Assembly (NCBI GenBank): GCA_963677925.2
Contig: CAXXYH010000003.1
Coordinates: 32,001-96,000, forward strand
Reading direction: 5' to 3'
DNA length: 64,000 nt
Origin: Spirochaetia bacterium
Lineage (GTDB): Bacteria > Spirochaetota > Spirochaetia > UBA9216
Position numbers and translations under genes: made by a program. Positions 29,542 through 51,606 of the stretch are shown here, one piece after another. Position 1 is the stretch's first letter, and each line of letters opens with the position of its first letter. Below the pieces are notes generated by a model. The model worked only from the letters and a program-made list of their open reading frames with translations. It did not search any database and was not told the DNA's origin.

Positions 29542-29553
29542 TAACGACGATTT
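29542..29553 (+). repeat. attL core direct repeat (R' end of the split attC)
   Basis: CAACA-TAACGACGATTT is followed by AAACGC instead of GAGTAG. Confidence 0.9.
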
Positions 29554-29580
29554 AAACGCAGCCCATGGAAGAAGTTGTTG

Positions 29581-29599
29581 AAAAAGTAGGGTAAACCCT
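29581..29599 (+). promoter_or_regulatory. 19-bp box repeated upstream of xis (copy 1)
   Basis: AAAAAGTAGGGTAAACCCT, identical at 32129-32147. Confidence 0.7.
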
Positions 29600-29701
29600 T
29601 ACCCAATAACACTTTACTCCTCTGTAAGGTTCTATCTAATACTAAACCAAAATGGCCGTGTATGCAGCTATGATAGCATTTCGGCCGCATAAGGAGTTTT
29701 T

Positions 29702-30856
29702 ATGCGTTACAGAGAACCTTTTACACTCTATCTCAGGAAGTTACCCTCGGGTAAGAAGATTTGGTATTATCAAACATACGATATGAACAACAAACGGACA
29801 AGCGCCTTTTCTACAGGTAAGAAATCTAAAACTGCAGCAAAAGCTTATTGTTTTGATTTACTGAAAAAAGATTTATTGATTCCGGTAAGACTGAGCAAAA
29901 TCACTTTTAAAAAATATTCTGAAAACTGGTGGCTATGGGATAAATGTGAATACTTGAATTATCTCAAAAAGAGAAAGACGATTTCAAGATCATATGCGAA
30001 GACCGCCCGGGTTATGCTTGGCAAGCATATACTACCGTATTTTGGAAAGCTGCAGTTGAGAGAAATAAGGTCATACGATATTGAGAAATGGCTGGATACA
30101 TTTGCTGTTAAGGGTCTGGCGAATGCAACGGCAAATCTCGGATTGGCTTTTTTGAAGATCATGTTCAAGGAAGCTGTAAGACGTGAGATTATATTTGAGG
30201 ATTCTTCAAGCTCAATCATGCCGCTTAAAACGGAAGCGGTAGTTCGCGGGGTCCTCTCCCAGGATGAAGTCTCAAAGCTTTTTAATCCTGAGAATAAAAA
30301 ACAAATATGGTCAAATGATATTTATTATTACGCAAATTTGTTGTCAGCCTGCACGGGCATGAGGCTTGGTGAAATACTCGCGGTTCGTGGGGAAGTACTG
30401 AAAGATAATTATATCATCGTTGACAAGCAGTATACTAAGAGCTTCGGGCTAACGGATACGAAGACTCATCATTCGAGAAAGGTAATAATTCCAGAAACAT
30501 TGATGGCCGAGGTTCTGAATTACTCGGAACAAAATAACGGCGGATATATATTTTCAATAGACGGCGGGAAGCAGCCGGTTTATCCGGACACTATGCGCCG
30601 AGCATTATTTAAAGCACTTGGGAATATTGGAATTGATGATGAACAAAGACGTGAACGAAACATATGCTTTCACAGTTGGAGGCATTACCTGAACACTACC
30701 CTAAGAAGCAACAACATCACCGACGGCAAGCTCAGAGCGCTGGTCGGACATTCATCTTCCAGGATGACCGAACACTACACCCATTTTGATACTGAGGATT
30801 TCAAGGACATTCAGGAGATCCAGAACAAGATAATAAACTTTAAAAAAGTAGTATGA
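29702..30856 (+). CDS. Tyrosine recombinase/integrase (phage/genomic-island type, not IntI)
   Basis: TGMRLGE, TKT, FHSWRH, VGH and EHY catalytic motifs; basic N-terminal arm-binding-like domain; AAGGAG RBS. Confidence 0.95.
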   Translation: MRYREPFTLYLRKLPSGKKIWYYQTYDMNNKRTSAFSTGKKSKTAAKAYCFDLLKKDLLIPVRLSKITFKKYSENWWLWDKCEYLNYLKKRKTISRSYAKTARVMLGKHILPYFGKLQLREIRSYDIEKWLDTFAVKGLANATANLGLAFLKIMFKEAVRREIIFEDSSSSIMPLKTEAVVRGVLSQDEVSKLFNPENKKQIWSNDIYYYANLLSACTGMRLGEILAVRGEVLKDNYIIVDKQYTKSFGLTDTKTHHSRKVIIPETLMAEVLNYSEQNNGGYIFSIDGGKQPVYPDTMRRALFKALGNIGIDDEQRRERNICFHSWRHYLNTTLRSNNITDGKLRALVGHSSSRMTEHYTHFDTEDFKDIQEIQNKIINFKKVV

Positions 30857-30864
30857 GTCAATTC

Positions 30865-30902
30865 GAAACTGGTAAATAGCAAAGTCTACCAGTTTCATTT
30901 TT
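30865..30902 (+). terminator. Intrinsic terminator after the integrase
   Basis: GAAACTGGTA...TACCAGTTTC followed by ATTTTT. Confidence 0.6.
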
Positions 30903-31128
30903 CAAAAATCTGGAATAATTTTCTAAAACAGTTTCAAGGTCTTGGTATTTCTGTAAATTTCATGTTAGGATTAAAAGTGTAAAATCTGCTGCAAATCCTC
31001 AGCCAATACCAAGAAGCAAAAACTACAAACAGCGTTTACAGTACCGAACATGAGACTCGAGTTAATAGTATTCAATGCACAAAGCTATGTAGCTATAGCA
31101 TTCATAATATATTCCCAGGAGAAAAACT

Positions 31129-31473
31129 ATGAAACCAGTCCAATGCTGTCTCTAGCAAAAAGAAGAATTCACGAAGGAGGACCTTCAACTTGAAAACATA
31201 CATACCTATGAAGATAATGATCACTTTAAACATAAGCTGAAAAGATGCCGGGAATGCGGTCAACTGTATTTCTATGAGTTTTATGAGGAAATAGACTGGG
31301 AAAACGGCAACGACCCCAGTTATATTACATATATTCCGGTTAAAACAAAAGAAGAAGCAGATTCCGTGGCCGGGTTATCTCCAATGGAACTGTTATCCCA
31401 CTTCCCGCAGATTAGAGATGACTTCCCAAGTGATGCTGATAAACCAAGAATAAGCTGGAGAGGTCGTGATTAG
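31129..31473 (+). pseudogene. Small CxxC-containing hypothetical gene with a premature TAG at codon 9 (missed by the ORF track)
   Basis: AGGAG RBS; MKPVQCCL*QKEEF...KRCRECGQLYFYEFYEEIDWENGNDP...WRGRD*. Confidence 0.65.
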
Positions 31474-32015
31474 AGATACTGCCTGTAATTATCAATACAG
31501 CTTTTTAGACGCTGACCGAGATATTCATGGAAAGCAGCAAGCTTTTCATAAATCAACTCTGCTTCCTGAAGATAGCTCAATTTTTCTTCAGGGGACCAAT
31601 GTGGGGGCGGTTCCTGTAAATTTGTAATACGGTCGCAAAGCTTTACCATTGCTGCAGATTTTCCAATAGACATTATACGTTCAAGAGAATCTTCCATCTG
31701 TTCAGTTTTTGATAAACCGCTTTTTTGTTTCTTGGTCAATGCTTTAACAGCAGCAGTTACCTCTGGACCGAACTCCTTTAAAAGTTCTTTTTCTGAAGTA
31801 TCGGTATCTTCGATGGTATCATGCAATAGAGCTGCCTGGATAACAACATCAGGGTTATCAGGAGCTTCTTTAAACATCGCCAGTCCTGCTTCTGCGGCAA
31901 CATTGCTGAGATGAACCACATAGGAGTAATTTTTACCCGGTACTTTCTGTTCTTTTTCTTCATGCTTTGCAGCGGCAAAATCAATTGCTTTTTGGTAACT
32001 CTCTTGTTTCCACAT
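31470..32015 (-). CDS. HD-domain small alarmone hydrolase (Mesh1/SpoT-like)
   Basis: YVVHLSNV, AALLHDTIEDT and VKLCDRITNL motifs. Confidence 0.85.
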   Translation of the reverse strand: MWKQESYQKAIDFAAAKHEEKEQKVPGKNYSYVVHLSNVAAEAGLAMFKEAPDNPDVVIQAALLHDTIEDTDTSEKELLKEFGPEVTAAVKALTKKQKSGLSKTEQMEDSLERIMSIGKSAAMVKLCDRITNLQEPPPHWSPEEKLSYLQEAELIYEKLAAFHEYLGQRLKSCIDNYRQYL

Positions 32016-32128
32016 GGCAAAACCCTTTTTTACACATAAATATTAGTAAAAGTATTCTAACAATTCCGGCCCGATTTCACAAGAAAGTAACTGTTGCAAA
32101 ATAAGCGCAATATACAACAAGAAAACTT

Positions 32129-32147
32129 AAAAAGTAGGGTAAACCCT
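32129..32147 (+). promoter_or_regulatory. 19-bp box upstream of xis (copy 2)
   Basis: AAAAAGTAGGGTAAACCCT; near-palindrome TAGGGTAAACCCTA. Confidence 0.7.
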
Positions 32148-32219
32148 ACCCTGCCAGTTGCGTTAAAAGCGGTAGATTGAAATACAGTCTATCGCTTTTT
32201 ATTTTCGAGGAGGTTTGAG

Positions 32220-32471
32220 ATGAAGGCATTATTGACTATTGAAGAAGCATCGGAACTTACGAAGCTGAGTATTAAAACCCTGTATAAATACGCGGAACGG
32301 GAAACTATCCCGCATATAAAACTCGGGCGCCGGGTTCTGTTCGACGAAGATGCTATTGAGGGATGGGTAAACAGCTATAGGGTTGCACCCGTGAGTGAGG
32401 CTGCGACGAAGCCTACCGCTGCGGTTGAAGCCAAGGAAGAGGCGTTGCAAGAAGCGGGAGAGCCGGTCTGA
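32220..32471 (+). CDS. Excisionase-like HTH_17 DNA-binding protein
   Basis: LLTIEEASELTKLSIKTLYKY..IPHIKLGRRVLF..IEGW; GGAGG RBS. Confidence 0.9.
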   Translation: MKALLTIEEASELTKLSIKTLYKYAERETIPHIKLGRRVLFDEDAIEGWVNSYRVAPVSEAATKPTAAVEAKEEALQEAGEPV

Positions 32472-32791
32472 TGAAGAAGAAATATCTTACCGTAGAAAAC
32501 ATTCGCGGTGCGCTGAAGTTCTTAAAGGCGCGACGGGAGCATGCTAAGACCACCGGCAATAGAAAATGTATTAAATCATGCAAGATCTCTATATGGGCTC
32601 TTTTCAGGGACTATATCCTATATTTATTTCTGCTGTTGAATCATTTTAAAGCAAGATCTGTTCAAAAGATAATTAACGTCATTATCAGGGAATCTCAATC
32701 TCACAACCTTCCAGGAATACAAAAGAATCAACCTGACGGTGCCAGCCGCCAGGTTAAAACGACTTACTTTGCCGTACTGGACAGGTGCTGA
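32471..32791 (+). CDS. Hypothetical basic protein coupled to xis
   Basis: Stop/start overlap with xis; the 3' end overlaps the convergent ORF. Confidence 0.45.
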   Translation: MKKKYLTVENIRGALKFLKARREHAKTTGNRKCIKSCKISIWALFRDYILYLFLLLNHFKARSVQKIINVIIRESQSHNLPGIQKNQPDGASRQVKTTYFAVLDRC

Positions 32792-33025
32792 ATCTGCAAC
32801 ACCGGCAATAACATTTGTAAGCGGACAAAGAGCACACCGCCGGTCTCTGCAATTGCTGCAGATGTTATTGCATTTCTTCATGGAGACAAAAGCTGCAACA
32901 GCGATATTCAGTGTCTGCGTCATTGGTTTGTTCAAGGCCCATGCGAGCCGCCTGAGAATGAAAGCCGTTTCGGAACTGATTTGGGGAGTATAAACTCTTT
33001 GTTTTGGTTGTTGATTCTGATACAT
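32624..33025 (-). CDS. Small mobile-element protein, RHH-like N-terminus with Cys cluster
   Basis: GGAGGT RBS; YTPQISS..LRRLAWALNKPMT..CNNICSNCRDRRCALC. Confidence 0.7.
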   Translation of the reverse strand: MYQNQQPKQRVYTPQISSETAFILRRLAWALNKPMTQTLNIAVAAFVSMKKCNNICSNCRDRRCALCPLTNVIAGVADSAPVQYGKVSRFNLAAGTVRLILLYSWKVVRLRFPDNDVNYLLNRSCFKMIQQQK

Positions 33026-33087
33026 AATGTACCTCCGTTTAGTGATTTGCTTTACGGACGAACAAAGGATTTACCTCCCTTGCTTGC

Positions 33088-33206: not shown

Positions 33207-33232
33207 AAACATTTCTTTTTAAAGGATTGTGT

Positions 33233-35632
33233 TTATATTATTTCTTGTTCAACTGAATAGCCTAATGCCTCATAGCCTTTCAGTCTTTTTGCATGCATTC
33301 TTGATAATACCGGGACATTTAGATCGGCGTAATCGTAAATCACAACATCGTCCTTGCCGTGATAATCTCTGTGCAATCTGCCGGCATATTGAGAGAGGGT
33401 TCCCCTCCATGAAACAGGAAAAGTCAATAATAAAGTATCCAGAAACGGCATATCAATTCCCTCACCGAGATATTTACCGGTAGAGAGGATTATTCTTGAG
33501 GTACCATCTTCTACCTGATTTATTTCATCAAATATCTTCTTCAGCTGTTTCTTACCTAACCCGCCTTTTAGAAGAAATAAATTATAATTCATCGGTTCGA
33601 GAAGATCATAGAGGGTATTGAGGTGTTCAATCCTTTCACTCAGTATAAGTATTTGCCTGCCAGTAGAAACAAGGGTTTTAACGTCTGAAATGATTTGATT
33701 GTTTCTAATTTCATCCGCACAAACAACCTTAAAGAGTTCCTGAATGCTGTAGTCAGCGTTCTTATTAATAGTAAACTTAGTCACACACACAATTATCCGG
33801 TGATCAAAATCCCGTTCCAAAGCCTGCTTTCTGGCATTTACCGAATATCTGATTTTACCAAGGTTCATAAATATGATCGGATGCTGGCCATCCTTCCGAT
33901 ATACCGTTGCAGATAACCCCATCTTATAAAAAGCATTGCTTTGCCTAATTGCCTGTTCAAATGAAAAAGCTGATATGTGATGGCATTCATCCACTATCAC
34001 CTGACCATAATGCTGAATCCAATCCGGAGTGATTCCGTTTCGTGAGACACTTTGAATAACGGCTATATCCAGTTTTCCATTTCTTTTCTTTTTGCCGCCA
34101 CCGAATTGTCCTACTTCTTTGGCGGGAATGTCGAAAAACTGACTAATTCGCTCCACCCATTGCTCCATCAGCTGTTTTCTGTGAACCAGAATCAGAGTAT
34201 TTACTTTTCTCTGAGCAATTAACCATAAGGCAATAACTGTTTTCCCGAATGCTGTCGTAGCAGACAGAACACCGGTTTCATTCTTTAATAACCCTTCAGC
34301 AGCTTTTATCTGTTCATCTTTAAGTTTCCCGGCAAATTTTACATCTATAGGAGTCCCATGATTTCTTTCGTCATTAGTTATGGGTTTAATATTATAGTGT
34401 TTCAGCAAATCCATAAGTTCATCGAGACAGCCAATCGGAATTGCTATATACTTCGGAAACTGTTCATATAGATATAAGATTCTTGGTTTATCCCATGTCG
34501 GTAGCCGCATTCGCTGGGCTTGATAAAACTCAGGATTAGAAAAGGATGCCAATCGAAGTATTCTGTTTATAATGATTGGCGGCAAACCTGAATAATCAAT
34601 AAAGATCTGATTTGACAATGTGATATCTATCTTATCCGGAATCATTTCATTAATTTCCGGGTAACGTATATGGTTTTTAATTTTCCAGGGAAGATCTTCA
34701 TCAACCTGACTACCGAAATCAGGTCCGACCGGTAGAAGTTCTCCGTTACTCTGTGCCCTTTGAACAAAATCCTCAATAAAACCTTTTTCAATCTTTTCTA
34801 TTCCTGAAAGGAATGTCCATTGATCCGGATAAGGAGTGAAATTCCTATCTAAGAATACAGAATGGTTTTTATCGCGGGCTTTTTTCTGTAACGGTAATGC
34901 AATAAGATTTCCAAAACCGCCGCGAGGGATTGTATCCTGATTGGGAAAAAAGCGATCAAATGAATCAAGACCAATTTCGGGCCGTATGTCGAGAGTCTTG
35001 GTTATCAGCGAGGAACCCAGCTTTCTGGCAAGCGAGGCTTCTACCCTTTCTTTGAAAAATAGCCATACATGACCTCCGTTACCGGATCTGGATCTTTCAA
35101 GATAGGCAGGAACATCTTCAGCCGCACAAGTATCAAGAAAAGCGCAGGAATCAAGCTTCCATTGTTCTTTATCGAAATCCAATGCCAGAAACCAGCAAGT
35201 TTCATCTTTTAAAAGTGGATATACACCCATCACAAACGGCTTTGATTTCTTCTCACCCATCAAATGAGCTCTTATCTCTTCATCAGTTAATTCTAAATAT
35301 GCCTTGTTAGGGCAATCCCGACATTTCTTTTGGGGTTTTCCGCATAAGCCAAGTACCCATTCATTTCTACATGCCGGCTGATAACCAGTTTTACCGGTTT
35401 TTTTGCTTTCGAACCTGCGCGCAAAGACATCCTCTCTGCCGCGAAATAATGAACGAAACAGCTTTATCTTTTCTTCGGGAGATGAAGTATTTGAAATAGT
35501 AGATTGTTTCTCCGATATCTGCTCCGGAATAGTTTGCAGCAAAGCTAACTCTTCCTTTTTTAGGTTCAGCACTGCTTCAAGTTGTGAAATCTCAGACTGC
35601 AGTTTATTTATTTTATCAGCAGGATTTTCCAT
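33233..35632 (-). CDS. AEP-primase (TOTE-type) domain fused to an SF2 DEAD/DEAH helicase
   Basis: LFRSLFRGREDVFARR, LALDFD, ERSRSGNGGHVW; TAFGKT, DECH, SAT and QYAGRLHR motifs. Confidence 0.85.
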   Translation of the reverse strand: MENPADKINKLQSEISQLEAVLNLKKEELALLQTIPEQISEKQSTISNTSSPEEKIKLFRSLFRGREDVFARRFESKKTGKTGYQPACRNEWVLGLCGKPQKKCRDCPNKAYLELTDEEIRAHLMGEKKSKPFVMGVYPLLKDETCWFLALDFDKEQWKLDSCAFLDTCAAEDVPAYLERSRSGNGGHVWLFFKERVEASLARKLGSSLITKTLDIRPEIGLDSFDRFFPNQDTIPRGGFGNLIALPLQKKARDKNHSVFLDRNFTPYPDQWTFLSGIEKIEKGFIEDFVQRAQSNGELLPVGPDFGSQVDEDLPWKIKNHIRYPEINEMIPDKIDITLSNQIFIDYSGLPPIIINRILRLASFSNPEFYQAQRMRLPTWDKPRILYLYEQFPKYIAIPIGCLDELMDLLKHYNIKPITNDERNHGTPIDVKFAGKLKDEQIKAAEGLLKNETGVLSATTAFGKTVIALWLIAQRKVNTLILVHRKQLMEQWVERISQFFDIPAKEVGQFGGGKKKRNGKLDIAVIQSVSRNGITPDWIQHYGQVIVDECHHISAFSFEQAIRQSNAFYKMGLSATVYRKDGQHPIIFMNLGKIRYSVNARKQALERDFDHRIIVCVTKFTINKNADYSIQELFKVVCADEIRNNQIISDVKTLVSTGRQILILSERIEHLNTLYDLLEPMNYNLFLLKGGLGKKQLKKIFDEINQVEDGTSRIILSTGKYLGEGIDMPFLDTLLLTFPVSWRGTLSQYAGRLHRDYHGKDDVVIYDYADLNVPVLSRMHAKRLKGYEALGYSVEQEII

Positions 35633-35785: not shown

Positions 35786-38700
35786 TTGAGCATAGCCGGA
35801 GTTCATTCAAACAGGGGCGATATATACCAAACTCTGATCGCATTTGACTGGGCCATAAAAGTATTTTCTGACCCGTCCTTTCAATGGCTCGAAGTAGATT
35901 CGATATTATTCCCGGAGGTTGATGATGTAGTTATAGGAAAGACAGATGGAACATTAATCTGTTGTCAGTGTAAAAAGAATCAATCGGACTTCAAAGCCTG
36001 GTCTTTTTCTGACTTAAAAAATGAGTTGGAAAAGACAATTAATCTACTCTGCACCAATGAAATGGCTACAGCACATTTTTATTCCCGCGATTCCTTTGGC
36101 GGTATGGCCAATTTAAGAGACTACATTGATATCCAATCAGACAAGGGGAATTATTATAAAAATCTATCTCAGAAATTACAAAAAGTAGATTCTGATTTAA
36201 ACGATCTTATAACCGAACAAGGATACAACTTTTCATCATATGATTTAATAAAGCGTATAACATTTGAAACTACCTTTGGATTCGAGAAGTTGGAAGATCT
36301 TTTAAGGGAAAGATTAAATGCCATAGTCAGCAATTCTGACAACGCCTATAATGCCCTTTGGACACGTCTTGCTCACCTTGGCGGATGCATGGGCGGGGAT
36401 TTAGCATCCGGTTCAAACAACGCCCGGTTAACTAAAGAGGATCTAAACAAAATTCTTATTGAAGCAGGAGCAATAAAAGCCCCGATTGTTGATATCAAAG
36501 AAGCCAAAATGTCCTTTTTACGTGCGTCCTCAATCGGCCGGAACTGGCAGCGAGATATTGCCGGCAAAACTATACCTATGCCGATAATTGATGATTTGTT
36601 ATCCGCTATCAGTGAAAAGAAAAAATCAATTCTGCTTACAGGAGCCCCTGGCTCCGGAAAAACCTGTGTGCTTCTTTCGCTTATGGAAAAATTAGAGGGA
36701 CTTTATAAAAATAGATCTGATATTGTTCCCATATTTATCCAGTCCCGGGAATTTGCTGATTTAAAGAGCCAAATAGATCGTGAAGCTCAAGGATTTCCAA
36801 AACAATTCTTCGAAACAACTGCTCGTTTAGCTGAAGAGTCGCATGTAATAGTGATTATTGATTCCCTTGATGTCCTTTCAATTTCGAGGGAACATTCAGC
36901 TTTAACATTTTTTCTATCACAAATAGACCAACTGCTACAGATTTCAAATGTTTCTATTGTCACTGCATGTCGTAATTTTGACAGACAATATGATTATAGA
37001 ATTGCTGTAAGAAATTGGGAATATGAGCTTGAATGTCCGCCTCTGGATTGGGGCAGTCAGATTGTGCCTTTACTTGAAGCCGTGGGCATTGCTCCGGAAG
37101 AAATTGATAAAAATACACATGAGCTAATTTTAAACCCGCGAGAACTTGATTTATATGTAACGCTTGTAAAAAAGGAAGGGAATGTAAGTTCCGTTACCAG
37201 CCAGGATCTGGCGCAACGTTATCTGGAAGCCGTTATTAGTACTGATCCTCATTTAGGGAGACCTGCACTGGAGGCGGTTGAGGACATCGCAGATGAGATG
37301 TTAAAAAATCGCAGCCTCGTTGTCCCTGTTCAAAGATTTAAAGGATCGGAGTTTTTACCGAACTTGCGAAGCGCAAACATACTACGGGAAAAAGATGGGG
37401 GACTCTCGTTCGGTCATCAAACCCTGCTGGATGTATTGGTTATAAGCAGAGCCATACATAACGGCATTACCCTAAGCGAGTTTATTGAAAACCTCCCTCC
37501 TGTTCCGTTTGTTAGACCGAGCATCAGAAGCTTTGTTGCTCACCTTGCGAGTGGAAATCGAAAAACATTTAGAAAACAGATTAGGGCGGTGCTTACAAGT
37601 AGTAGTGCTTTTCATATACGGCGTCTTATTGCTGAATCAGTAGCGGAACAGATTCCGACTGACGATGATTGGCCTTTAATACGAGATCTGAAAATAAATC
37701 ATAATGAAGTTTTTCAGGTTATCTATATGAAAACACAGAAGATAGAGTGGCTTGATTTCTGGGATAGAAACCTTGTTCCAATGTTGACTACAACAAACGA
37801 TTACGAAGGGCTCGTATCTCATGCATATAAAATTTCAATTTGGGAAAATAACTCTCCTGAAAAAGTTATTAACTTCTGGATGGAACTTCTGAAAATGCAG
37901 ACTGATAACGAAGAACGTATTAGAACTCAAATTGAAATTTATCTTTCGGATATAAGAATTGAATATTCAAAATACATAGTTCCAATATTAGAAATCTTAA
38001 TAGATAAACCAAAATCGCAACATAATTTCTTAGGACGTAGTATAGCAAAGTGTGTTCACACAGGAGTTATAAATGATTCGCTACTTTGGAAATATATTTC
38101 CGGTGATGTTACTGATGAAGATGTAAGAAATAATCATTTCAATAAAAAATTATTCTGCGCTTATCATCATTTTGGAGATAAGGATAAAGACTTTCTTAGC
38201 GATAGAATGAAACATTCTGAAAATCTATTGGATCTTGCTATCACCTCAATTTTAGAATGGAATAAAATCAAATATCATGAATTTGGAAGAACCGGTTTCA
38301 ACTTTACAAATGGCTTTCTCTCCTATACTTCTTATGAAATGGTTCACACAAAACATGATACATATCCAGTTGATGACGAAACAATACTCTTCAAAGCTGT
38401 AGAGGTGGCCATATTTTATCATGCAGAGAACCATTCTGATTGGTGGAAGAATAATAGTGAATCCATTGCGTTCTGTAATGAAACGGCTTTACGCTATTTT
38501 ATTATTATTGCATGTACTCGTTTCCCTGAATTCAATATGGAATTAATTGGACGAATTCTAACTGATAAAGAATTGCTGGAATCAGAATTATCATATGAAT
38601 TAGGCTGCTTGATAAAAAAATCCTTTGTTTATCTCACCTCTGATATTCAACATGAAATTATTGAAATAGTTTCAAATATTCATAGTGACTATCTGTCTGA

Positions 38701-40339: not shown

Positions 40340-40358
40340 CTAAATTGCCGGCGCTCAT

Positions 40359-40371: not shown

Positions 40372-40412
40372 ACTTAGAAAAATCTGATTAAGGCATCTGT
40401 CTTTCAATAAAA

Positions 40413-43322: not shown

Positions 43323-43325
43323 TTT

Positions 43326-43763
43326 TTACCTGCTTATTGCTTCATATATCCTTAATTTTATTACTTCATCATCTATATCATCGTTAATTACCGCTTCAAT
43401 AATATCATGCAGAAGCTCTTTATCAATCTTACCGGCAGCCAGATGAAAACTTATATTCTCCATCTCTTTAATAAAACGCGGAACAGCAAAAACATAACCG
43501 TTTATAAGAAGGAACTGAGCTCCCAGTGATATTGCAATACGCTTATTTCCATCCTGAAAGCAATGGAATTTATTCGAGCAGTAAAAGAGGTGGGTCAATT
43601 TCTCGACAAAGTCGGGATAATAATCATCGTTCTGGATATGAGCTAAGACACTTTCCAACTGCCCTAAATTCAAGACACCGTCAGAACCGCCGCCGCTGAC
43701 CTCTATAGTCTTATGATATACCTCGAGAGCATTTTCAATGGTGATATAAACGGTGCGGCTCAA
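43326..43763 (-). CDS. Doc-type Fic domain protein
   Basis: HCFQDGNKR motif. Confidence 0.88.
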   Translation of the reverse strand: MSRTVYITIENALEVYHKTIEVSGGGSDGVLNLGQLESVLAHIQNDDYYPDFVEKLTHLFYCSNKFHCFQDGNKRIAISLGAQFLLINGYVFAVPRFIKEMENISFHLAAGKIDKELLHDIIEAVINDDIDDEVIKLRIYEAISR

Positions 43764-44785
43764 TCCCTCTCCTTCAGACGCTTGAACACATCCTTGGCCT
43801 CTTCCAGACGATCCGCCAATTCTTTGCTCTTTTCCCCAATAAACCGCTCAAATTCATCAGCCTGTACCGGAGAAATGTAATCCTTAAGCTGCAAGTGCAG
43901 AGCATCGCGAAAGGCCAAATCACGGCTTGCCATCTTGTTTCTTGCACGTTCGACAAGGGGTACCCAATGGGGCTGCCTTTCGAATTCGGAGAATAAGACA
44001 TCAGCTTCAAAGGATGTCAGCATTGCCCCTTTCTTCTTGAAGGCTTCTTCAAGTGTTTTAGCAAATCCGTATTCATATGCAGCAATAAGGTCGAGGATCT
44101 CGGAATAGAAGGTATCCCGGACCTTATCCTTCTCCTGAAGTTTCAGGATTTTCCTATATTCTTTCGAATTCTCCCTGAAAATGCTTACATATATCTTATC
44201 GGTATAAAGAGGGTACTTGTATTTCCCCATATCAAGATAGTTCTTAAGGGCATCGGTAAACTCTTTTCGATAGTTTTCTTCCTGAAAATAGGCGATTATA
44301 AAGTCTTCATCACGCTGATTCACATATTTTGTAGCACCGCCGGTACACTTGTTGATAGTATCGATGACGATATCCAGAATCACCTGACGGAGGATTTTAG
44401 CCTTTTCGCTTTCCGTAATCAGCATTCCCAGGTTCAAAAATGAACGAAAATCAAAAACACCAAGGCTTGGAGCCTTCTTGATGTTAACGAAATACATTTC
44501 GTCGACATCAGCTTCGGAAATGGCTAATTTCAACTCCTGCAAGGCTTTACCCCGTAAAACCTCGTAACCGTTATGTTTAAGCTCATCTTCGTTCTGAGAC
44601 AGATAATTATCGATAGTCCGGGGGCTTACCTCAAAAAAATCAGCAACCTGCTCTTTTGTTAGAACGGCCTTATCCATGTAGCTGATGGTGTGGATTCCGA
44701 CATTGCTTTTAATTTCTTCCAGAGCATATGGATTATTGAGGATATTCTGCCGTTCTACCCCGGATACGGTGAGATCTTTAGGCAT
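43760..44785 (-). CDS. Putative DNA-binding protein inserted in the hsd operon
   Basis: Start MPKDLTVS at 44785 overlaps the hsdS stop; LTKEQVADFFEVSPRTIDNY HTH-like segment. Confidence 0.7.
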   Translation of the reverse strand: MPKDLTVSGVERQNILNNPYALEEIKSNVGIHTISYMDKAVLTKEQVADFFEVSPRTIDNYLSQNEDELKHNGYEVLRGKALQELKLAISEADVDEMYFVNIKKAPSLGVFDFRSFLNLGMLITESEKAKILRQVILDIVIDTINKCTGGATKYVNQRDEDFIIAYFQEENYRKEFTDALKNYLDMGKYKYPLYTDKIYVSIFRENSKEYRKILKLQEKDKVRDTFYSEILDLIAAYEYGFAKTLEEAFKKKGAMLTSFEADVLFSEFERQPHWVPLVERARNKMASRDLAFRDALHLQLKDYISPVQADEFERFIGEKSKELADRLEEAKDVFKRLKERD

Positions 44786-46061
44786 AAACAGCCTCCTGTA
44801 CATCTGCTTCGGTAATTCGCCGTTTACCGGTAACACATTCATGAATCAACGATTTCTTATACTCTTCCAGCTTCTCAATCTGGAGGGTTATTTTCTCGAG
44901 AACGGTATCTATTTCAGATGTTTTTTGGTCGAGGTAAGCTGCAATATTTAATTGTTCTTTATAGCCTGGAACAGGAATATATAATCTTTTTATTGTATCA
45001 ACTGAAATCCCAGGCTGTGCTGCGGCATTTGAATATTGATTAAGATTCATAATGATTAATAATGCCTCTAACCAACGAATTGCATATCGCCTTATTGGAT
45101 AGCAAACTATTGCATGCTCTGTTGCCCAAAACTTTCCGCTAATATAATTTATATTCCCACAAAGAGCGCCTTGTCGTCCAATTAATAGATACTCACCATC
45201 ATTATTGTATTCTGGAAAATATCCACGTAAACCATTGCCGCCCAATACAGGGAATGAGCCTTCATTTTGTATCTGCTCTGATGTAAGGTTCTCACCACTT
45301 TGAAGTTTAAAATTATCTTTAATTCTTTTAACCTTCCAGCCTTTCGGTATTTTTCCAATCCATTCAATTCCGGAATCTTTCATCTCTACTGAATCATCCA
45401 GCCCCTTGGTAACAGCTTTATAGATAATGGATTTCTTGAGTTCTTCAAGATTCTCAAGCTGTTTCCTTTTTACAGCAACGGCCTTATCTATGGTAGCAGT
45501 TGTTCTATCCAGATAGGCTGAGATAAGCTTTTGCTCCGGAAGAGGTGGAAGAGGCAGTATTCCATTTTTGATATGCCTTCTTGAAATAGCCCATCGAGTA
45601 ATTCCTGTTGCTTCCCGATGAAATTGAGATGCAATAGATAAATCTTTAAAACACCAAAAAATAAAAGCCCCATACAAGCGATTTTTATAATTTCGTAATA
45701 TTGCTAAATGATAACCACATAATAGATTTTCAATTTTATCCTTAACAATAGCAGGTACTGCAATATCGAAAGGGTCCTCAGAGTCTTTTGTAATAATTAC
45801 ATCGCTTTCTTCAAGCTGGAACTTAATAACTTCATTTTCATTTGCAGTTGCTTCCATGAAATTGATATCTTGTTTTATGAAATCGTTATAATAGACATCA
45901 ACATAATTACATAGTTTAACTGGTTGCTCATTATCCTCAGTCTTTTTATCCACATTACTAGGAATTACATAGCAACTCCCCTTAATCTTTGTAGAACGCC
46001 ATTCCCTCTGGATCATACCGATCCATTCGGTACCTGACTCAATCAAATCTGACACAATCAT
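44778..46061 (-). CDS. hsdS: Type I R-M specificity subunit
   Basis: Two target-recognition domains with conserved PPLPEQKLISAYLD and DSGIEWIGKIPKGW spacers. Confidence 0.93.
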   Translation of the reverse strand: MIVSDLIESGTEWIGMIQREWRSTKIKGSCYVIPSNVDKKTEDNEQPVKLCNYVDVYYNDFIKQDINFMEATANENEVIKFQLEESDVIITKDSEDPFDIAVPAIVKDKIENLLCGYHLAILRNYKNRLYGAFIFWCFKDLSIASQFHREATGITRWAISRRHIKNGILPLPPLPEQKLISAYLDRTTATIDKAVAVKRKQLENLEELKKSIIYKAVTKGLDDSVEMKDSGIEWIGKIPKGWKVKRIKDNFKLQSGENLTSEQIQNEGSFPVLGGNGLRGYFPEYNNDGEYLLIGRQGALCGNINYISGKFWATEHAIVCYPIRRYAIRWLEALLIIMNLNQYSNAAAQPGISVDTIKRLYIPVPGYKEQLNIAAYLDQKTSEIDTVLEKITLQIEKLEEYKKSLIHECVTGKRRITEADVQEAVYA

Positions 46062-48079
46062 TTCAGCCCCTTCAGAATTACTTCCGCTTCTGATTCCAGC
46101 TGCCAGAACTCTTCCAGTATTTTATCCGCAGGCTTTGGAGGTTCGTATTTATAAAAATACTTGTTCGGCAGGATTTCATAACCAAGCTGCGGCCGGTCTT
46201 CCCATTTGATAATGGGCTTGGAAATCTCCCTTTCAAGAAAAGCCTCTATATCTTCACCATAGGGAATGTATTCATCATCCTGAATGTAATGCTTATGTGT
46301 ATATTTTGCAGAAAGATCCCAATCCTTTATTGCCTTAAAAATCTTCGCGGCTGTTTTATGTACTTCAAGCTCGGGGAAATCAGTCCTGGCTAAATCTGAT
46401 AGCTGGGCTTCAAAAGATTTTGATTCTTTGGTTTGAAGTACAGAATATTCTTTTTCAATACCATCAGGGGTAATAAGCTTTACAGTAAAATCAAGATCAC
46501 CATAGAGATCAAATTTCTTTTTCACATTCGTATTGGAAAGCTGGACATCGAAATTTTCGGTAACCATCATCGGCTCATCATTTTCATCAGTCTGCCAGAA
46601 AGTAACGGCAACCTTATGATATGCAAAATCACTGTTCTGAAATATCTTTACATTTTCATTATCATAACCGGACTTCCTTCCAAGATTATACTGTTCTTTA
46701 ATCCAGGCTCTATGTTCATTCGTCATTCGATTACGCTTGTTGCCGAAGGATTTAGGTTCTTTTTCAAACTGCTGTCTGGCATCAATAATCATCACCTTGC
46801 CTTTATGTTCTACAGGCCTATTGTTTGAAAGCAGCCAGATATAGGTATAGATGCCGGTATTATAGAACATCTGATCCGGCAGCATAACAATTGCATCAAG
46901 CCAGTTATTTTCAATGATCCATCGGCGGATTTCACTCTCTCCGGATCCGCAGTCACCGTTACTCAATGGTGAACCATTAAAGATTATTGCAATTTTGCTG
47001 CCGCCGTCATCTACAGGCTTCATCTTAGTCAGCATTGTCTGTAAAAATAGTAATGCACCGTCATTGGTTCTGGGCATTCCGGCTTTGTAGCGGGTGCTTC
47101 CCAGCTTGCGGGCTTCTTTTTCATAACCGTCTTCACCGCCCCAGGTTACGCCGAAAGGAGGATTTGAAAGCATGTAATCAAATTGATCGTGTTCTCCGGA
47201 AAGCTGGTCCCCGGGATCATCGCTTTCCGGATCATGAGGAATAAGTGAATTTCCGTAATAAATAAAGGCGTTGGAATCGTTCTTAATGAGCATATCAGCC
47301 TTACAGATAGCATAGTTCTGGGGCTGAATTTCATGGCCATGGAGGGTAATCAGGGTTTCGGTTCTGGACTTTTCATCTGAATCATGTATTCTGTCCACAA
47401 CATGGGCTTTTGCAACGGAAAGCATTCCGCCGGTTCCGCAAGCAGGATCGTAGATGGAAACATGCTTATCTTTAACGGAGATATCAAGAAGTTCTACCAT
47501 TAGACGAATGACTTCTCTTGGCGTAAAATGTTCTCCGGCTTCTTCCCCGCTCTGCTCTGAGAATCGTCTTAACAATTCTTCATAGATATATCCCATCTCA
47601 AGGTTACTGATTTTCTCAGGGCTCAGATCTTCATTTCGATACTGGTTAATGATTGGAGCAAGGCGGCCGTTCTTTTTCATCTGGCCGATGATAGCTCTGT
47701 AATTGAAATGATCTATGATCTCCTGGATATTCTCGGAAAAACCGTTGATATAATCCCGGAAGTTCTTTTCCATTATGGTATGATCTTCCTGATAGATTGA
47801 ATCCAGGGTCCAGTTTGTTGAATTTGAGAAATTGTAGGTGGATAATTCCATCTTTTTGACCATCTCATCAAGGTTCCTGGAAGCAAGATCAGGACGTTTT
47901 GAGTGTATTTCTGCTTTTGTTGCTTCTCTCATTTCAATAAGAACACATTCAATGCGCCTGATTACTATAATAGGGAGAATAACGTTTTGATATTCGTATG
48001 CTTTGAACTTTCCCCGAAGGCGTTCAGCTGATTTCCATATTTCATTCGCTAAATTATTAAGTATTTCCTGTGTTGCCAC
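46058..48079 (-). CDS. hsdM: Type I R-M methyltransferase
   Basis: GEHFTPREV, YDPACGTGGML and NPPF motifs. Confidence 0.95.
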   Translation of the reverse strand: MATQEILNNLANEIWKSAERLRGKFKAYEYQNVILPIIVIRRIECVLIEMREATKAEIHSKRPDLASRNLDEMVKKMELSTYNFSNSTNWTLDSIYQEDHTIMEKNFRDYINGFSENIQEIIDHFNYRAIIGQMKKNGRLAPIINQYRNEDLSPEKISNLEMGYIYEELLRRFSEQSGEEAGEHFTPREVIRLMVELLDISVKDKHVSIYDPACGTGGMLSVAKAHVVDRIHDSDEKSRTETLITLHGHEIQPQNYAICKADMLIKNDSNAFIYYGNSLIPHDPESDDPGDQLSGEHDQFDYMLSNPPFGVTWGGEDGYEKEARKLGSTRYKAGMPRTNDGALLFLQTMLTKMKPVDDGGSKIAIIFNGSPLSNGDCGSGESEIRRWIIENNWLDAIVMLPDQMFYNTGIYTYIWLLSNNRPVEHKGKVMIIDARQQFEKEPKSFGNKRNRMTNEHRAWIKEQYNLGRKSGYDNENVKIFQNSDFAYHKVAVTFWQTDENDEPMMVTENFDVQLSNTNVKKKFDLYGDLDFTVKLITPDGIEKEYSVLQTKESKSFEAQLSDLARTDFPELEVHKTAAKIFKAIKDWDLSAKYTHKHYIQDDEYIPYGEDIEAFLEREISKPIIKWEDRPQLGYEILPNKYFYKYEPPKPADKILEEFWQLESEAEVILKGLK

Positions 48080-48436
48080 GATATTCCTCTTTTGTATTGC
48101 CCAGCAGAGGGGCCTATGATAATAGTTTCTCTTTATCTGATTATTATTTATATCATATTTTGATATATTTTAGGGTTAAATTATATTGGATATAGATTGA
48201 ACTTGTGAACCTTAATGAACTTTTTTTGAAAAGAAAAATATAAAATATAGAAGTGTATAGTATAAGTAAAAGAAGTGAACTCATTCTTGGCAAAGGCCTC
48301 CCCCCTACTGTGGGCATAAATCATTGTAATTACTTTATATGTAGCAGATTGCATAAGATAGTGTTACTCCATTTTTTCACAAAAATATATAAATTTTTGT
48401 GAAATTTCTCGGGTATCAATTGTTACAAGCACCAAA

Positions 48437-48449
48437 ATTTTCACCGACG
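48437..48449 (+). repeat. 13-bp direct repeat, right of the R-M module
   Basis: ATTTTCACCGACG. Confidence 0.75.
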
Positions 48450-48469
48450 TTTTCCCGGCAATTGCGGTA

Positions 48470-49285
48470 TCATCTTATAAACCGCTCCACAGACATTGTC
48501 TCAGTATCTATCACTACAAATACCAGTGCTCCGGTTTGACCTGGTTGTATCACAATCGTGTTGCCTACTTCGTGCTTCCATTTCCCGCTGACATCGGGTG
48601 ATTCATGAATATGGCCATGTAATGAAAATAAAGGTTGTCTTTGCTTTATGAAATTATATATGGAATCGGAGCCAACACGTCTTCCATCCATACAGACATC
48701 CAGACCAAGCTTTGAAGGCGGCATGTGAATAATATAAACAACCTTTTCATTACCGGATTTCGGCAAATTCTCGAGTTCATCATGTATAGTAGGTAGTTTT
48801 TTTACATATCCGGACCAATCGACAATTTCAGTCCATCCGTCCTCAGTCGAAAGCAGCGCAGTTCCGTTTTGTATTTGAGGAAGGTAATTGTCATTATCCA
48901 TCCGGCATCTATCTTTTAATCTGAACGGGTAATCGACAACCCAGTTCATTCCAATAAAATCAAAATCATTAATCGTTATTATTTTTTGAGCGATATCATG
49001 GATATAATCAAATCGACTGCATTCTTCCTGAAAAAGTTCGTCAAAAATCTTTAGATCATCATTTCCCGGGTAACTTAGATAATGGATTCCAAGCTGCTCG
49101 AATCTTTCAAAATGCTTATGCAGTTTATCCTTTATAAAAGCATCCTGTTTGTGCAGATCAATATTCTTAGGAAACATATCTCCACCATTAATCACAACGT
49201 CAGGATGTAATTCATCAGCAACATTCACTAATGCATCATATTTTCGATTATCACCGTGAAGATCTGTAATGTATATTATTTTCAT
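48470..49285 (-). CDS. Calcineurin-like metallophosphoesterase
   Basis: DLHG, GGD, GNDD, HMPP and GHIHE motifs. Confidence 0.9.
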   Translation of the reverse strand: MKIIYITDLHGDNRKYDALVNVADELHPDVVINGGDMFPKNIDLHKQDAFIKDKLHKHFERFEQLGIHYLSYPGNDDLKIFDELFQEECSRFDYIHDIAQKIITINDFDFIGMNWVVDYPFRLKDRCRMDNDNYLPQIQNGTALLSTEDGWTEIVDWSGYVKKLPTIHDELENLPKSGNEKVVYIIHMPPSKLGLDVCMDGRRVGSDSIYNFIKQRQPLFSLHGHIHESPDVSGKWKHEVGNTIVIQPGQTGALVFVVIDTETMSVERFIR

Positions 49286-49294
49286 CGTTTCCTT

Positions 49295-49864
49295 TTAATC
49301 GCCAAATATTCCGCCGTTAGCGCCTCTATCCTGAAACTTATGTTTTTCTACTAAAGCGCCAAGAGGGTCCTCGACTTCCAATATTTCACTTTTTGAAAGA
49401 AGATTGAATGTATTTAATAAAAAAGCTTCTTTATCTTCTGCCTTTTCATATTCACTGAGAATTGAAATCTCCTGATACAAACTGCTGAAGCGTCTATGCC
49501 ATAGATCCCGTTCCGTTTGGGCCTTGTCCAGCCATTCAATGAGATCGAGCCTATCAATTGAGTTCAACCTTTCTTCTGCTTCATCTTCTGAATTGAAAAT
49601 ACCGATATATATTGAATGCCAGACAGCGATATAAACAAGACCGTTATTTACATCTTTTGGCCAACGACATTTATCACAATACAGTGTCTCAGTAATAATT
49701 CCCGTTCTTATCCTGCATCCTCTTGTTATATCTCCCGGCTCATATGTATCCATAAAGTTTTCAAAAACTTTGGTCTGAACAGAATTGATTTCATTACCGC
49801 AATCAGGACATTTTATCGAATCCCCCAGTATTAATGTGTCGAATAATCCCATATTATGCCCCAA
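49295..49864 (-). CDS. Hypothetical Zn-binding protein
   Basis: MGLFD..CPDCG..QTK..YCDKC. Confidence 0.7.
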   Translation of the reverse strand: MGHNMGLFDTLILGDSIKCPDCGNEINSVQTKVFENFMDTYEPGDITRGCRIRTGIITETLYCDKCRWPKDVNNGLVYIAVWHSIYIGIFNSEDEAEERLNSIDRLDLIEWLDKAQTERDLWHRRFSSLYQEISILSEYEKAEDKEAFLLNTFNLLSKSEILEVEDPLGALVEKHKFQDRGANGGIFGD

Positions 49865-50139
49865 AAAAGTATAGTTTTACGCAGTTTTATACGTTACTAA
49901 CGTATATCTCATTATAACCTGAATCTAATAAAAATAATTCCGGTGTTTTGCATTTTAATACCGGGGTGACAATTAGCAAGTTTATTTTAAATATCTCATG
50001 ACTCATCTATAAAGCCATCTACTAAAACATATTGTAATACAAGAATCAGTAAATATCAAACATTCATAAAGTTGGCCGTCACATCAACCTTAACAATTAC
50101 AGATATTGGTATAGTATTGGTGGCATGGATGATGTAAAG

Positions 50140-50700
50140 AGGGCCGCGGTGTGAAACACGGCGGTGCGCGGGCCTTTTTACGGCTGGAAGCCAGACGCTC
50201 CCCCCCAGCGGGGGGGACGGGAGGGGGGGGAGAATACAATAACTTACCTTTCGGCGCCGGTCCGGGAGGAAGCCGTAAAAAGCCGACCCGAAGATAGCAG
50301 CTATTCAATAGCCTTATTTACCGCTCATGAGGGTTACTATAAAAATGAGGTTCCAATGCCTATTACGTTATGATTCTATTGAATGGCTGTTTGATGAGGG
50401 CCGGAAAAGTTCCAGGTAACAACCCAGGCACACAACCGCGCAGGGACGCGCGGGACCTGCAGGTACAGCCCTGGACTAAATGGCATGCCCGGAAAAGGGA
50501 GCGCGGAAGCGCGGTTTCCGGGTGTTGAAACAAAGAGTGTCAGAGCAAAAACGGGAGCGTGAAAATGCAAAGCATTTTACGCGGGTTTTTGCAGCGGCTA
50601 CGGATTAAAAGCCCGCCGGTCTGCGTGAGCAGTCCGGGAGTATTGTCTTTTTTTCTTGTAATAAGGAATTTATCACGGGCGGAGCCGGTGATAAATATTG
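50140..50700. other. GC-rich non-coding region with many nested hairpins (oriT/sso or structured RNA candidate)
   Basis: At least eight inverted repeats, e.g. CTTTTTACGGCT (50174-50185)/AGCCGTAAAAAG (50271-50282). No credible ORF. Confidence 0.55.
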
Positions 50701-50830
50701 GTATTACTAAACAACTATCTGAACAATATTCGGCTAACACCATAGCTTTTAAAATAATATTATTTACTATACGCTCATACTGTATCATAATATGCATATA
50801 ATTTAATTCGTTATTAAGAGGTGAATGTAG

Positions 50831-51313
50831 ATGGCAAAAATACAGTGTCCTTATTGTCGAAAACCCATCGATGAAAATATAGAATATTGTTCTTTTTGTG
50901 GTAAATCTTTAGATGTAGATACAATCAAACTCAGTAAAGAGAAGCAGAAGAAAAGAAATAAACGGATTTGGATATTTGTTGCTATTTCTATTGCTTTTTT
51001 TACGATTGTCATGTTCATTCCATCGGATGGGTCGTCATCAAGTAGTAGTACAGCACAAACTAAAGAAGTTGTCACAAATAGTTCTTTAGATTCCTCTGTA
51101 TCTCAAGTAAAAGTGTGGATGAGAAGTAATTTAAAAGATCCAGATTCATTGGAATATTTAGAATGGTCAGCTGTACAAAAGACAAACACCGGAGATTATA
51201 GAGTTCGTGTTAAATATAGAGCAAAGAATTCTTTCAATGCAGTGGTTATTGAAAACAAGTTATTCACGTTGGATTCTAATGGTGTTGTTATAGATGTGGT
51301 GGATTATCATTAA
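50831..51313 (+). CDS. Zinc-ribbon, single-TM membrane protein
   Basis: CPYC..CSFC, TM helix, LKDPDS..YRAKNSFNA; GAGGTG RBS. Confidence 0.8.
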   Translation: MAKIQCPYCRKPIDENIEYCSFCGKSLDVDTIKLSKEKQKKRNKRIWIFVAISIAFFTIVMFIPSDGSSSSSSTAQTKEVVTNSSLDSSVSQVKVWMRSNLKDPDSLEYLEWSAVQKTNTGDYRVRVKYRAKNSFNAVVIENKLFTLDSNGVVIDVVDYH

Positions 51314-51473
51314 ATATAAATTATTCTTTGTCAGCAAATATGATAGCATTTAGCTTACGGAATTGGTAGAAATAGGCAAGAATTAAGAACATTACAAGGC
51401 AATCATATTTGACTAATTCCTTATATAGTAGTAATATAGAGAAATAGATAGTAATCTACGGAATTGAGCGGTT

Positions 51474-51606
51474 TAACGACGATTTGAGTAGCGAAACCGG
51501 CCGAGTCTTCGAGGCTTGGCGCAGTTCTGGAACGTAGCGCAATCAGCGCGGAGTGTCTTTAGCCAGAACTGTGACAAAGGTTTTGACTACTCCAAATCTC
51601 TTGTTA
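51474..51606 (-). repeat. attC regenerated at attR of the element
   Basis: Complete 133-bp main-family copy whose first 12 bp are the element's direct repeat. Confidence 0.93.

Follow-up and report, generated by a model that had tools for sequence, protein, structure and literature searches.

How does a block of almost 22 kb come to lie inside a single recombination site of an integron cassette array, and which recombinase placed it there? The question is raised by the 64,000-nucleotide stretch of a Spirochaetia genome analyzed here (GCA_963677925.2, contig CAXXYH010000003.1, positions 32,001 to 96,000; hereafter the window). The source genome of the window is G000, and its contig C3 carries the window's array together with intI, the integron integrase gene; coordinates are those of the window unless a contig is named. 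The block is probably a 21.9-kb integrative island that entered one of the attC sites of the array by conservative site-specific recombination through its own lambda-type integrase.

The 12-bp sequence TAACGACGATTT is present in direct repeat at 29542-29553 and 51474-51485. The two copies start 21,932 bp apart, the distance given in a preliminary description of this DNA, and the island between them measures 21,920 bp. The junctions, the attachment-site arms and the recombination genes are arranged as follows.

28372..28516, plus strand: intact attC of the left cassette, the reference copy (covariance model 167.4 bits, positions 1-145; single-stranded DNA fold -31.1 kcal/mol, z -5.2)
28517..29541, minus strand: left cassette with a 266-amino-acid open reading frame (ORF) at 28587-29387 (minus); it starts with TTATGTTG on the minus strand, the leftover of the R' box of the split attC
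29542..29553, no strand: attL core TAACGACGATTT, comprising the R'-box AAC and the L' box of attC (12-bp identity block)
29554..29701, plus strand: P' arm between core and int, beginning AAACGC, with the conserved box GTAGGGTAAACCC and the arm repeat TATGATAGCATTT at 29669-29681
29702..30856, plus strand: tyrosine integrase of 384 amino acids with a predicted lambda-Int-like three-domain architecture (Pfam, PHROGs, AlphaFold2 and Foldseek)
32220..32471, plus strand: Xis-like helix-turn-helix (HTH) protein of 83 amino acids, a putative recombination directionality factor (Pfam HTH_17 1.1e-12; phrog_66 and phrog_1840, excisionase)
51339..51473, plus strand: P arm, with TATGATAGCATTT at 51339-51351 and two copies of TACGGAATTG, ending ...GAGCGGTT at the core
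51474..51485, no strand: attR core, the second copy of TAACGACGATTT (12-bp identity block)
51468..51612, plus strand: full-length attC rebuilt at attR, to which the island contributes the outer portion of the R' box (164.6 bits)

Both edges of the island fall within a genuine attC. On the left, CAACATAAC (29537-29545) is the reverse complement of GTTATGTTG (28507-28515) at the end of the preceding attC, which marks a true cassette junction and defines 28517-29544 as a single cassette unit. On the right, the sequence runs on past the second 12-mer copy as GAGTAGCGAAACC..., and the remainder of the attC restarts at 51486 (GAGTAGCG...), alignable from end to end with intact copies, for example 28372-28516. 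When the left flank is joined to the core and to the DNA that follows attR, the product aligns as one complete attC, so removal of the island would restore the target. An attC covariance model was built from 37 copies in the window and one relative, with the two island-adjacent copies excluded. This model scored 51468-51612 at 164.6 bits over all 145 positions and found no site within 29554-51467. Base composition changes at the same borders, with a GC fraction of ~0.35-0.42 (about 0.39) in the island versus ~0.25-0.33 (about 0.28) in the cassettes on both sides. The window contains 11 matches to the 12-mer when at most one mismatch is allowed, whereas 0.36 are expected in shuffled sequence and none of 100 shuffles reached 11. 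Nine of the 11 matches are exact, and every copy other than the one at attL is the left end of an attC site. The count of eight further attC sites in the window containing AACGACGATTT agrees with that given previously.

The interrupted array belongs to a real sedentary chromosomal integron. BLAST with one attC located 28 copies over G000:C3:51630-126779 and four more on contig C4, and the covariance model placed 16 sites on the plus strand of the window from 19595 to 63238. In the hairpin alignment of the 37 copies, 97.5% of cells are standard pairs compared with 34-42% in slid controls, and 20 of the 37 hairpin pairs carry compensatory changes on both sides. The integron integrase, IntI, was identified at C3:128526-129455 with the NCBIfam integron-integrase model TIGR02249 (382.9 bits; cut-off 265). 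Its 419-amino-acid ORF (C3:128199-129458, plus strand) is divergent from the cassettes and lies beyond the last attC and a minus-strand first cassette; the ORF start (128199) is ~1.4 kb past that attC. All ORFs of at least 90 amino acids in 19774-29387 are on the minus strand. Since the cassette ORFs are on the minus strand and intI lies to the right of the array on the plus strand, the array runs leftward from an attI near C3:127.4-128.2 kb and the plus strand of the window is the attC bottom strand. In this orientation the island breaks its attC at the L'/R' end, at the established IntI cleavage point, where strands are exchanged at AA/C (the slash marks the cut). One predicted cut of the island's integrase would coincide with this IntI crossover, as the preliminary description inferred. 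Covariance score, IntI score and attC covariation together show that the bounds of the element split a true attC of a true integron.

The target is present in many copies. The exact 12-mer is found in 18 of the 28 full-length attC copies collected from G000 and in 11 of 31 sampled from G007, a relative with a single-contig 5.15-Mb chromosome (OY776510.1). The remaining copies differ at L' positions that covary with L'', and natural variants of the 12-mer include GACGTTTT, GACGAAAT, GACAATTT and GACCAAAT. Many attC sites are therefore candidate targets, but not every one.

Several other features of the attC family were recorded. Many copies (window 20343-63238 and the G007 array) share the R boxes TGCATTTAAC...GTTAAATGC. 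Copies up to 98.5% identical were found across two genera, which suggests either cassette exchange or one common IntI specificity across the family. A second integron-like locus lies outside the window at G000:C4:1138286-1149385. Two separate segments of its 363-amino-acid ORF match the IntI model, at 97.5 and 98.9 bits, both under the cut-off of 265, and four attC sites of the G000 family are located 3.5-10 kb from this ORF on the minus strand.

The island encodes an intact tyrosine integrase next to attL and a Xis-like gene nearby, in line with the earlier proposal of an integrative island equipped with its own recombinase. The integrase matches Pfam Phage_integrase (2.4e-14) and SAM-like domains and the PHROGs integrase family phrog_1 (6.8e-51). 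The catalytic residues R221, K254, H324, R327, H350 and Y359 are shared by all 24 aligned integrases and also by the five closest. An AlphaFold2 model computed from the 24-sequence alignment (predicted local distance difference test score, pLDDT, 86.8) has a small N-terminal domain, with strands at residues 7-13 and 19-26 and a helix at residues 43-55, that precedes the SAM-like core-binding and catalytic domains. The best Foldseek matches to this model are full-length lambda Int chains (1z1b, 5j0n and 1z1g; E down to 5e-13, 367-401 aligned columns), and the integron integrase 2a3v ranks 17th. The nearest solved structures by sequence are Tn1549 Int and lambda Int. The score against the IntI model is only 33.2 bits (cut-off 265). 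The predicted fold and the profile scores point to a classical lambda-type enzyme with three predicted domains, not an IntI. The Xis-like gene sits in a block that is common to the G007 island.

Integrase relatives were sought in 41 genomes including G000 (the family plus a class sample), in species-representative genomes (29 loci), in metagenome contigs (44 loci) and in viral contigs (2 loci). The close relatives are all in Spirochaetia, including 'Candidatus Thalassospirochaeta sargassi'. Junctions were read for the following elements, with slashes bounding the core and percentages giving identity to the G000 integrase.

G007 chromosome (OY776510.1): integrase 85%; attL TATACA/TAACGACGATTT/GAACGC; attR GAGCGGTT/TAACGACGTTTT/GAGTAG
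G004 contig C50: integrase 74%; CCGTA/TAACGACGATTT/AAACGC; an attC ~0.8 kb upstream at the contig end
G004 contig C22: right end GAGCGGTT/TAACGACGATTT/GAGCTG within an attC; another attC ~1.2 kb away
G004 contig C24, 8049-9160 (G004:C24:8049-9160): degraded copy, integrase 82% over residues 1-203 followed by a TAG stop and a second fragment; same attL junction
G009 contig C121: attR-type end GAGCGGCT/TAACGTCGATTT/GAGCTG within an attC (94.5 bits)
L063, metagenome: integrase 78%; left junction CACA/TAACGACGATT/AAAACCGC

The 12-bp core is present at four of four attL junctions associated with integrases that are 74-100% identical, and its first 11 bases (TAACGACGATT) are present at the fifth, L063. 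In agreement with the expectation that homologues would be flanked by attC halves, the attC junction is shared by the closest ones: G007 (85%), G004:C50 (74%), L063 (78%) and the degraded G004:C24 copy (82%). In G007, 27.6 kb separate the two ends, which are surrounded on both sides by a large array belonging to the same attC family. The R box in the left flank is exactly complementary to the preceding attC in G000 and G007 and complementary at 9 of 10 bases in G004. No attC was detected in the short flanks of L062, L063 and L064 with filters off; only 12 nt of attC are expected on the attL side. The attL signature was also searched in 401 Spirochaetia genomes with three mismatches allowed. 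Exact matches occur only in G000, G004 (two) and G007; there is one match with two mismatches and there are 24 with three, and a reversed control matched at a broadly similar rate. All of these inexact matches were treated as noise.

The ends of the elements are organized as the arms of a complex attachment site. Leading up to the core, the island right end has the sequence ...CTACGGAATTGAGCGGTT, and the left end continues from the core as AAACGCAGCCC...; the inverted repeat described around the core is present, in imperfect form. The end of the P arm is conserved in G007, G004:C22 and G009:C121. The 13-mer TATGATAGCATTT occurs in both G000 arms (29669-29681 and 51339-51351). The G004 element has another sequence, the 16-mer ACATATATGACAGCAG, at the matching places in both arms, and G007 has TATGATAGCATTT in the left arm and a one-mismatch copy in the right arm sequence. 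These repeats lie ~115-135 bp from the core on both sides. Repeats that change together in the two arms fit arm-type binding sites, to which the integrase would bind. The 7-bp spacer CGACGAT of attP and the exact positions of Int cleavage are hypothetical assignments.

The insertions differ in their surroundings. Conserved between the islands of G000 and G007 are int, the blocks containing xis and the metallophosphoesterase gene, and the right end (70.7-92.3% DNA identity); the middle parts differ. The cassettes flanking the G000 island have no match in the 100-kb G007 array region; of the G007 flanks, one corresponds to another cassette of G000. Between G000/G007 and G004/G009 there is also a difference in the attC subtype at attR. 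Because only 12 nt of attC stay at attL, the cassette to the left should no longer be exchangeable by IntI, and the differing left cassettes would then reflect separate insertion events. In the sister species G001 (98% complete), at least 32 attC of the same family are present, but the protein most similar to the island integrase shows 31% identity and is encoded beside tRNA-Phe; because G001 has the array and only this distant integrase, the attC-targeting island does not appear to be ancestral. At that G001 locus (G001:C2:29527-35248), three attC of the same family lie 2.4-4.6 kb downstream of the integrase gene; this locus may be a tRNA-targeting island that carries integron cassettes.

An integrase tree was computed from 39 rows, consisting of G000 and 38 near-full-length loci; partial matches were omitted and L038 (163 amino acids only) was dropped. 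Seven integrases (G000, L033 from G007, L063, L034 from G004, L062, L035 and L036) form one clade with support of 100/99. This clade and its sister clade are each nested among integrases encoded beside RNA genes. A tRNA (Pro, Leu, Val, Arg, Phe) or tmRNA gene lies within 600 nt upstream in 12 of the 32 rows outside the seven-member clade, and none was detected for the other 20, which are often short-flanked. For the seven clade members themselves, no such RNA gene was detected within this distance. The concern that homologous integrases might sit mainly at tRNA or other loci was not realized, as only relatives that are at most 46% identical (31-46%) adjoin tRNA or tmRNA genes. Because the closest integrases share the attC junction and the distant ones are found at tRNA or tmRNA genes, attC looks like the primary site of a derived integrase subclade. 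Descent of this subclade from tRNA/tmRNA-targeting ancestors is plausible, with the midpoint root of the tree serving for drawing only.

The sister clade comprises L037, L040, L041, L048, L052 and L059 from one metagenome-assembled genome (MAG), together with L045, L047, L057, L060, L065-L069, L090, L096 and L104. Its integrases are 45-70% identical over the matched part, and all have a near-identical upstream block, TTGACT...GGTATTATTCTTTATGTGGTAA.GAATTAAAAGTATAG. The presence of at least six copies with differing flanks in the one MAG identifies a multicopy element.

The observed anatomy of the element, the conservation of its ends, the repeated use of one core next to different cassettes, and the predicted fold and catalytic residues of the integrase lead to the following model. 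In attP the right end (...GAGCGGTT), the 12-bp core and the left end (AAACGC...) would stand in this order, with short inverted repeats flanking the core. Int assembled on attP through arm and core contacts would capture attB, the double-stranded L'/R' end of an attC, roughly (A)TAACGACGATTTGAG, and strands would be exchanged inside the 12-bp identity. Since attP carries the last 12 bp of attC plus the R-box-like GGTTTAAC, integration would rebuild a full attC at attR and leave 12 bp at attL, and the array would still be usable on the attR side. The Xis-like HTH protein would direct the reverse reaction, excision. We infer that Int rather than IntI recombines the sites and that the substrate is double-stranded; the cut positions and the role of Xis are likewise putative.

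A number of observations weigh against this model. No empty site, circular form or excision product was seen. The empty site that had been anticipated in related genomes was not found when the G000 flanks were sought in the G007 array region and in the 11 family genomes; in the latter search each flank matched only G000 itself. The exact attL signature is confined to three of the 401 Spirochaetia genomes, which amounts to few events in related hosts. No attC is present in the 40 kb examined around the degraded G004:C24 copy (~9 kb and ~31 kb on its two sides). L062 (integrase 67%) has a junction, ATAACGAC, that is only cassette-boundary-like. L036 (G005, 61%) begins 139 nt beyond the distal end of an intact attC and has two further attC upstream; over the 40 kb left on its contig there is no attC and no junction repeat longer than 10 nt. 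L035 (61%) has no attC within 10 kb upstream. Finally, core position 9 in G007 is A in attL and T in attR. This difference lies inside the proposed spacer and fits poorly with a strictly homologous 7-bp overlap that spans position 9; it could be explained if the crossover falls left of this position, if one mismatch is tolerated or if the base mutated later. Three observations adjoin these points. The G004:C24 junction is flanked by gene-like DNA and not by a cassette, and no matching right end was found for this copy. The right-end motif is absent from G005 at up to three mismatches. One public sequencing run, probably from the source sample, contains the left cassette, in sparse contigs that cover 10 of 30 bins of 28300-30300 and leave the junction unbridged.

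The island might instead be an oversized cassette-like circle moved by IntI, with an attP core that mimics the R'/L' pair and an integrase of its own that is not needed. The left edge of the identity block is indeed the IntI cleavage point, the right end contributes the R-box-like GGTTTAAC, a functional-looking IntI is encoded on the same replicon and a small hairpin is possible at the attP core. This explanation is very improbable in light of the folding and the ends. Modeled as a single strand, attP forms only an 8-bp hairpin at the core (about -3.6 kcal/mol, z about -1.1 to -1.5), and a 142-nt version folds at -12 kcal/mol (z -0.8 to -1.35), compared with -31.1 kcal/mol (z -5.7) for attC. 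In these models attP is not an attC-like folded substrate, and the covariance model detects nothing resembling an attC within the island. Beyond the IntI cut the identity continues for 9 bp, a length needed by a homology-dependent overlap and not by IntI single-strand exchange. The int-Xis module and the arm repeats near the ends are conserved across elements, and the repeats covary.

We give little credence to a history in which attC is not a dedicated target, where the junctions would descend from one old insertion that was inherited or reshuffled, or where attC would be a look-alike secondary site of an attB elsewhere. The resolved cases do come from one spirochaete family (genera g1 and g4), the degraded G004:C24 copy and L035 (61%) lie outside detectable arrays, and the wider integrase family occupies tRNA and tmRNA genes. 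Against such a history, the left-flank cassettes and attC subtypes differ among G000, G007 and G004, the sister species G001 has an attC array without the island, and 85% integrase identity spans two genera. There is no tRNA gene in the window or near the seven clade members, and the same 12-bp core recurs at all four attL junctions (11 bases at L063). It is barely conceivable that the junctions arose in assembly, through chimeric joining at a repeated attC. Near-identical 140-bp attC repeats can mislead assemblers, but attL holds only 12 bp of the repeat, too short for a mis-join, and the same architecture with both ends is found in the single-contig G007 chromosome and the same ends in two further assemblies. 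Integration by the island's own integrase is the explanation retained here.

A further proposal is that two unrelated tyrosine-recombinase systems share one crossover point, with Int acting on double-stranded DNA and IntI on the folded attC at attR, both at AA/C. Both enzymes could act there because the attP core imitates the R'/L' boxes of attC. We consider this unlikely. If it were true, the island could become trapped when IntI inserts a cassette into attR, or could be moved by IntI along with neighboring cassettes, and Int could recombine any two attC that have identical 12-mers. Such Int-driven attC x attC recombination would delete or shuffle cassettes independently of IntI and the SOS response.

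The remainder of the island is cargo and shared backbone. It has at least 15 genes on both strands, of which the following were assigned outside the integrase and the Xis-like gene.

31470..32015, minus strand: HD-domain phosphohydrolase (Pfam HD_4 6e-13; phrog_990)
33233..35632, minus strand: PrimPol (AEP-TOTE) fused to a superfamily 2 helicase, cargo (AEP-TOTE 2.6e-97, ResIII, Helicase_C; PADLOC PrimPol 1.4e-90)
35786..40339, plus strand: 1517-amino-acid P-loop (AAA/STAND-like) protein, candidate defence cargo (AAA 8e-06, weak STAND; PADLOC PDC-M54A 3.3e-15)
40413..48079, minus strand: type I restriction-modification operon (Pfam, PADLOC)
40413-43322, minus strand: hsdR (PADLOC REase_I 1.4e-40)
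43326-43763, minus strand: Fic/PDC-M59B gene inside the restriction-modification operon (PADLOC PDC-M59B 1.1e-36)
43760-44842, minus strand: PDC-M59A gene inside the same operon (PADLOC PDC-M59A 6.9e-105)
44778-46061, minus strand: hsdS (PADLOC Specificity_I 4.4e-88)
46058-48079, minus strand: hsdM (PADLOC MTase_I 1.5e-184)
48277..50692, minus strand: backbone block common to the G007 island, with a metallophosphoesterase, a 189-amino-acid ORF and small ORFs (blastn 70.7-92.3% identity)
48470-49285, minus strand: metallophosphoesterase (Pfam Metallophos)
49295-49864, minus strand: 189-amino-acid ORF, in the backbone block shared with G007
50831..51313, plus strand: zinc-ribbon protein of 160 amino acids (Pfam DUF7575, Zn_Ribbon_1; PHROGs families of unknown function)

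The label 'defence island' holds for the cargo of the G000 copy (restriction-modification, PDC-M59A/B and PrimPol-helicase) and does not extend to the family, since the G007 cargo is mostly different. The latter includes an AbiEi-like protein, an IS110-family transposase, radical-SAM enzymes, a histidine kinase and response regulator, and glycosyltransferases. The target is multicopy and lies in a largely silent array, and the cargo is variable, with anti-phage defence in the G000 copy. The PDC-M59A/PDC-M59B pair, a PADLOC candidate defence system in which B has a Fic/DOC domain, lies between hsdR and hsdS (43326-44842), and ~360 bp of this region (44337-44700) is also present in the G007 island. 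The PrimPol-helicase was considered as a backbone replication gene and rejected, as it has no DNA similarity to the G007 island. The neighbors of the zinc-ribbon gene are small ORFs without a known family. No virion, packaging or conjugation genes were detected among the 18 ORFs scanned with Pfam and the 10 scanned with PHROGs. A prophage or satellite was therefore rejected for lack of structural and packaging genes in Pfam or PHROGs, and an integrative and conjugative element for lack of conjugation genes in the scanned ORFs. Viral contigs contained only the two integrase relatives, at 35-40% identity, and gave no sign of a phage. No tRNA gene is present in the window, and no Rfam family reached its gathering score in 19000-64000.

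Among known systems, the island closely resembles those that lambda- and P4-type integrases insert into tRNA or tmRNA genes as islands and prophages. The integrase family, the predicted three-domain fold, the position of int next to attL, the Xis-like HTH protein, the complex attP with arm repeats and the short identity block are the same, and in both an end of the target is carried by the element so that integration restores the target at attR. In the tree, the closest outgroups are found at tRNA-Pro, -Leu, -Val, -Arg, -Phe and tmRNA genes. The G000 target differs in being a non-coding, multicopy, structured site of another tyrosine-recombinase system and not a single-copy essential RNA gene, and the identity block is just 12 bp. 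Integrative mobile elements exploiting Xer (IMEXs) at dif borrow the host recombinases XerCD. They too use a conserved site of a host tyrosine-recombinase system, but the island brings its own integrase and shares only the site. Cassettes mobilized by IntI have the same position in the array and a junction at the same AA/C (G/TT) point. They are small and mostly consist of one promoterless ORF that ends in its own attC, whereas the island encodes its own integrase among at least 15 genes distributed over both strands, lacks an internal attC and is bounded by a 12-bp duplication. Identification of the island as a gene cassette was rejected because it lacks an attC hairpin of its own and its 12-bp duplication extends 9 bp past the IntI cut.

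In the literature searched, two kinds of element are described as targeting attC. Insertion sequences, especially those of the IS1111 group, are named as such in PMC12444791 and PMC11089894, where insertion into the attC of cassettes in one orientation is credited to Tetu & Holmes 2008 and Post & Hall 2009, and the abstract of PMC11187229 describes RNA-guided target choice by these elements. Specific insertion into attC is what they have in common with the island; they are insertion sequences of ~1.5 kb with a DEDD transposase, in contrast to a 22-kb island with a tyrosine integrase. An IS1111-attC element was rejected because no DEDD (IS110-family) transposase is encoded in the 18 scanned ORFs and the island is 21.9 kb long versus 1-2 kb. 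The G007 island carries an IS110-family (DEDD) transposase gene in its cargo (L026:6954-7946), not in an attC; the transposase belongs to the same broad family as the attC-targeting IS1111 group. Group IIC-attC introns insert into attC sites according to the abstracts of PMC3001079 and PMC7923331. These introns differ from the island as retroelements with a ribozyme and a reverse transcriptase that recognize the folded single strand, and this class was rejected because no Rfam family reached its gathering score in 19000-64000 and the scanned ORFs have no reverse transcriptase domain.

A tyrosine-integrase island with an attC attachment site was not found in the full-text literature searched (subscription journals and supplements lay outside it), consistent with the earlier statement that no such family was known to have been described. 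The passages of PMC9345347 on strand-biased integrative elements and of PMC8649781 on Tn7-like cargo that mention attC do so only in other connections. The island is a known kind of element, an integrase-mediated integrative island, with a new kind of target, and it may represent a third and mechanistically different kind of attC-targeting element. If so, it would be the first of these able to deliver tens of kilobases into a cassette array.

For the integrase family, the finding would mean that attB switched in evolution from tRNA and tmRNA genes to a structured multicopy site with the 'restore the target' logic retained. The elements provide a system for asking how a double-strand integrase reads a site that evolved for single-strand recombination and whether the two recombinases interfere. 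The practical reach is limited at present to three genomes from one family of environmental (marine) spirochaetes. Abstracts on the subject describe integron arrays as stores of defence genes, and the island raises the question of whether these arrays also serve as landing pads for whole defence islands.

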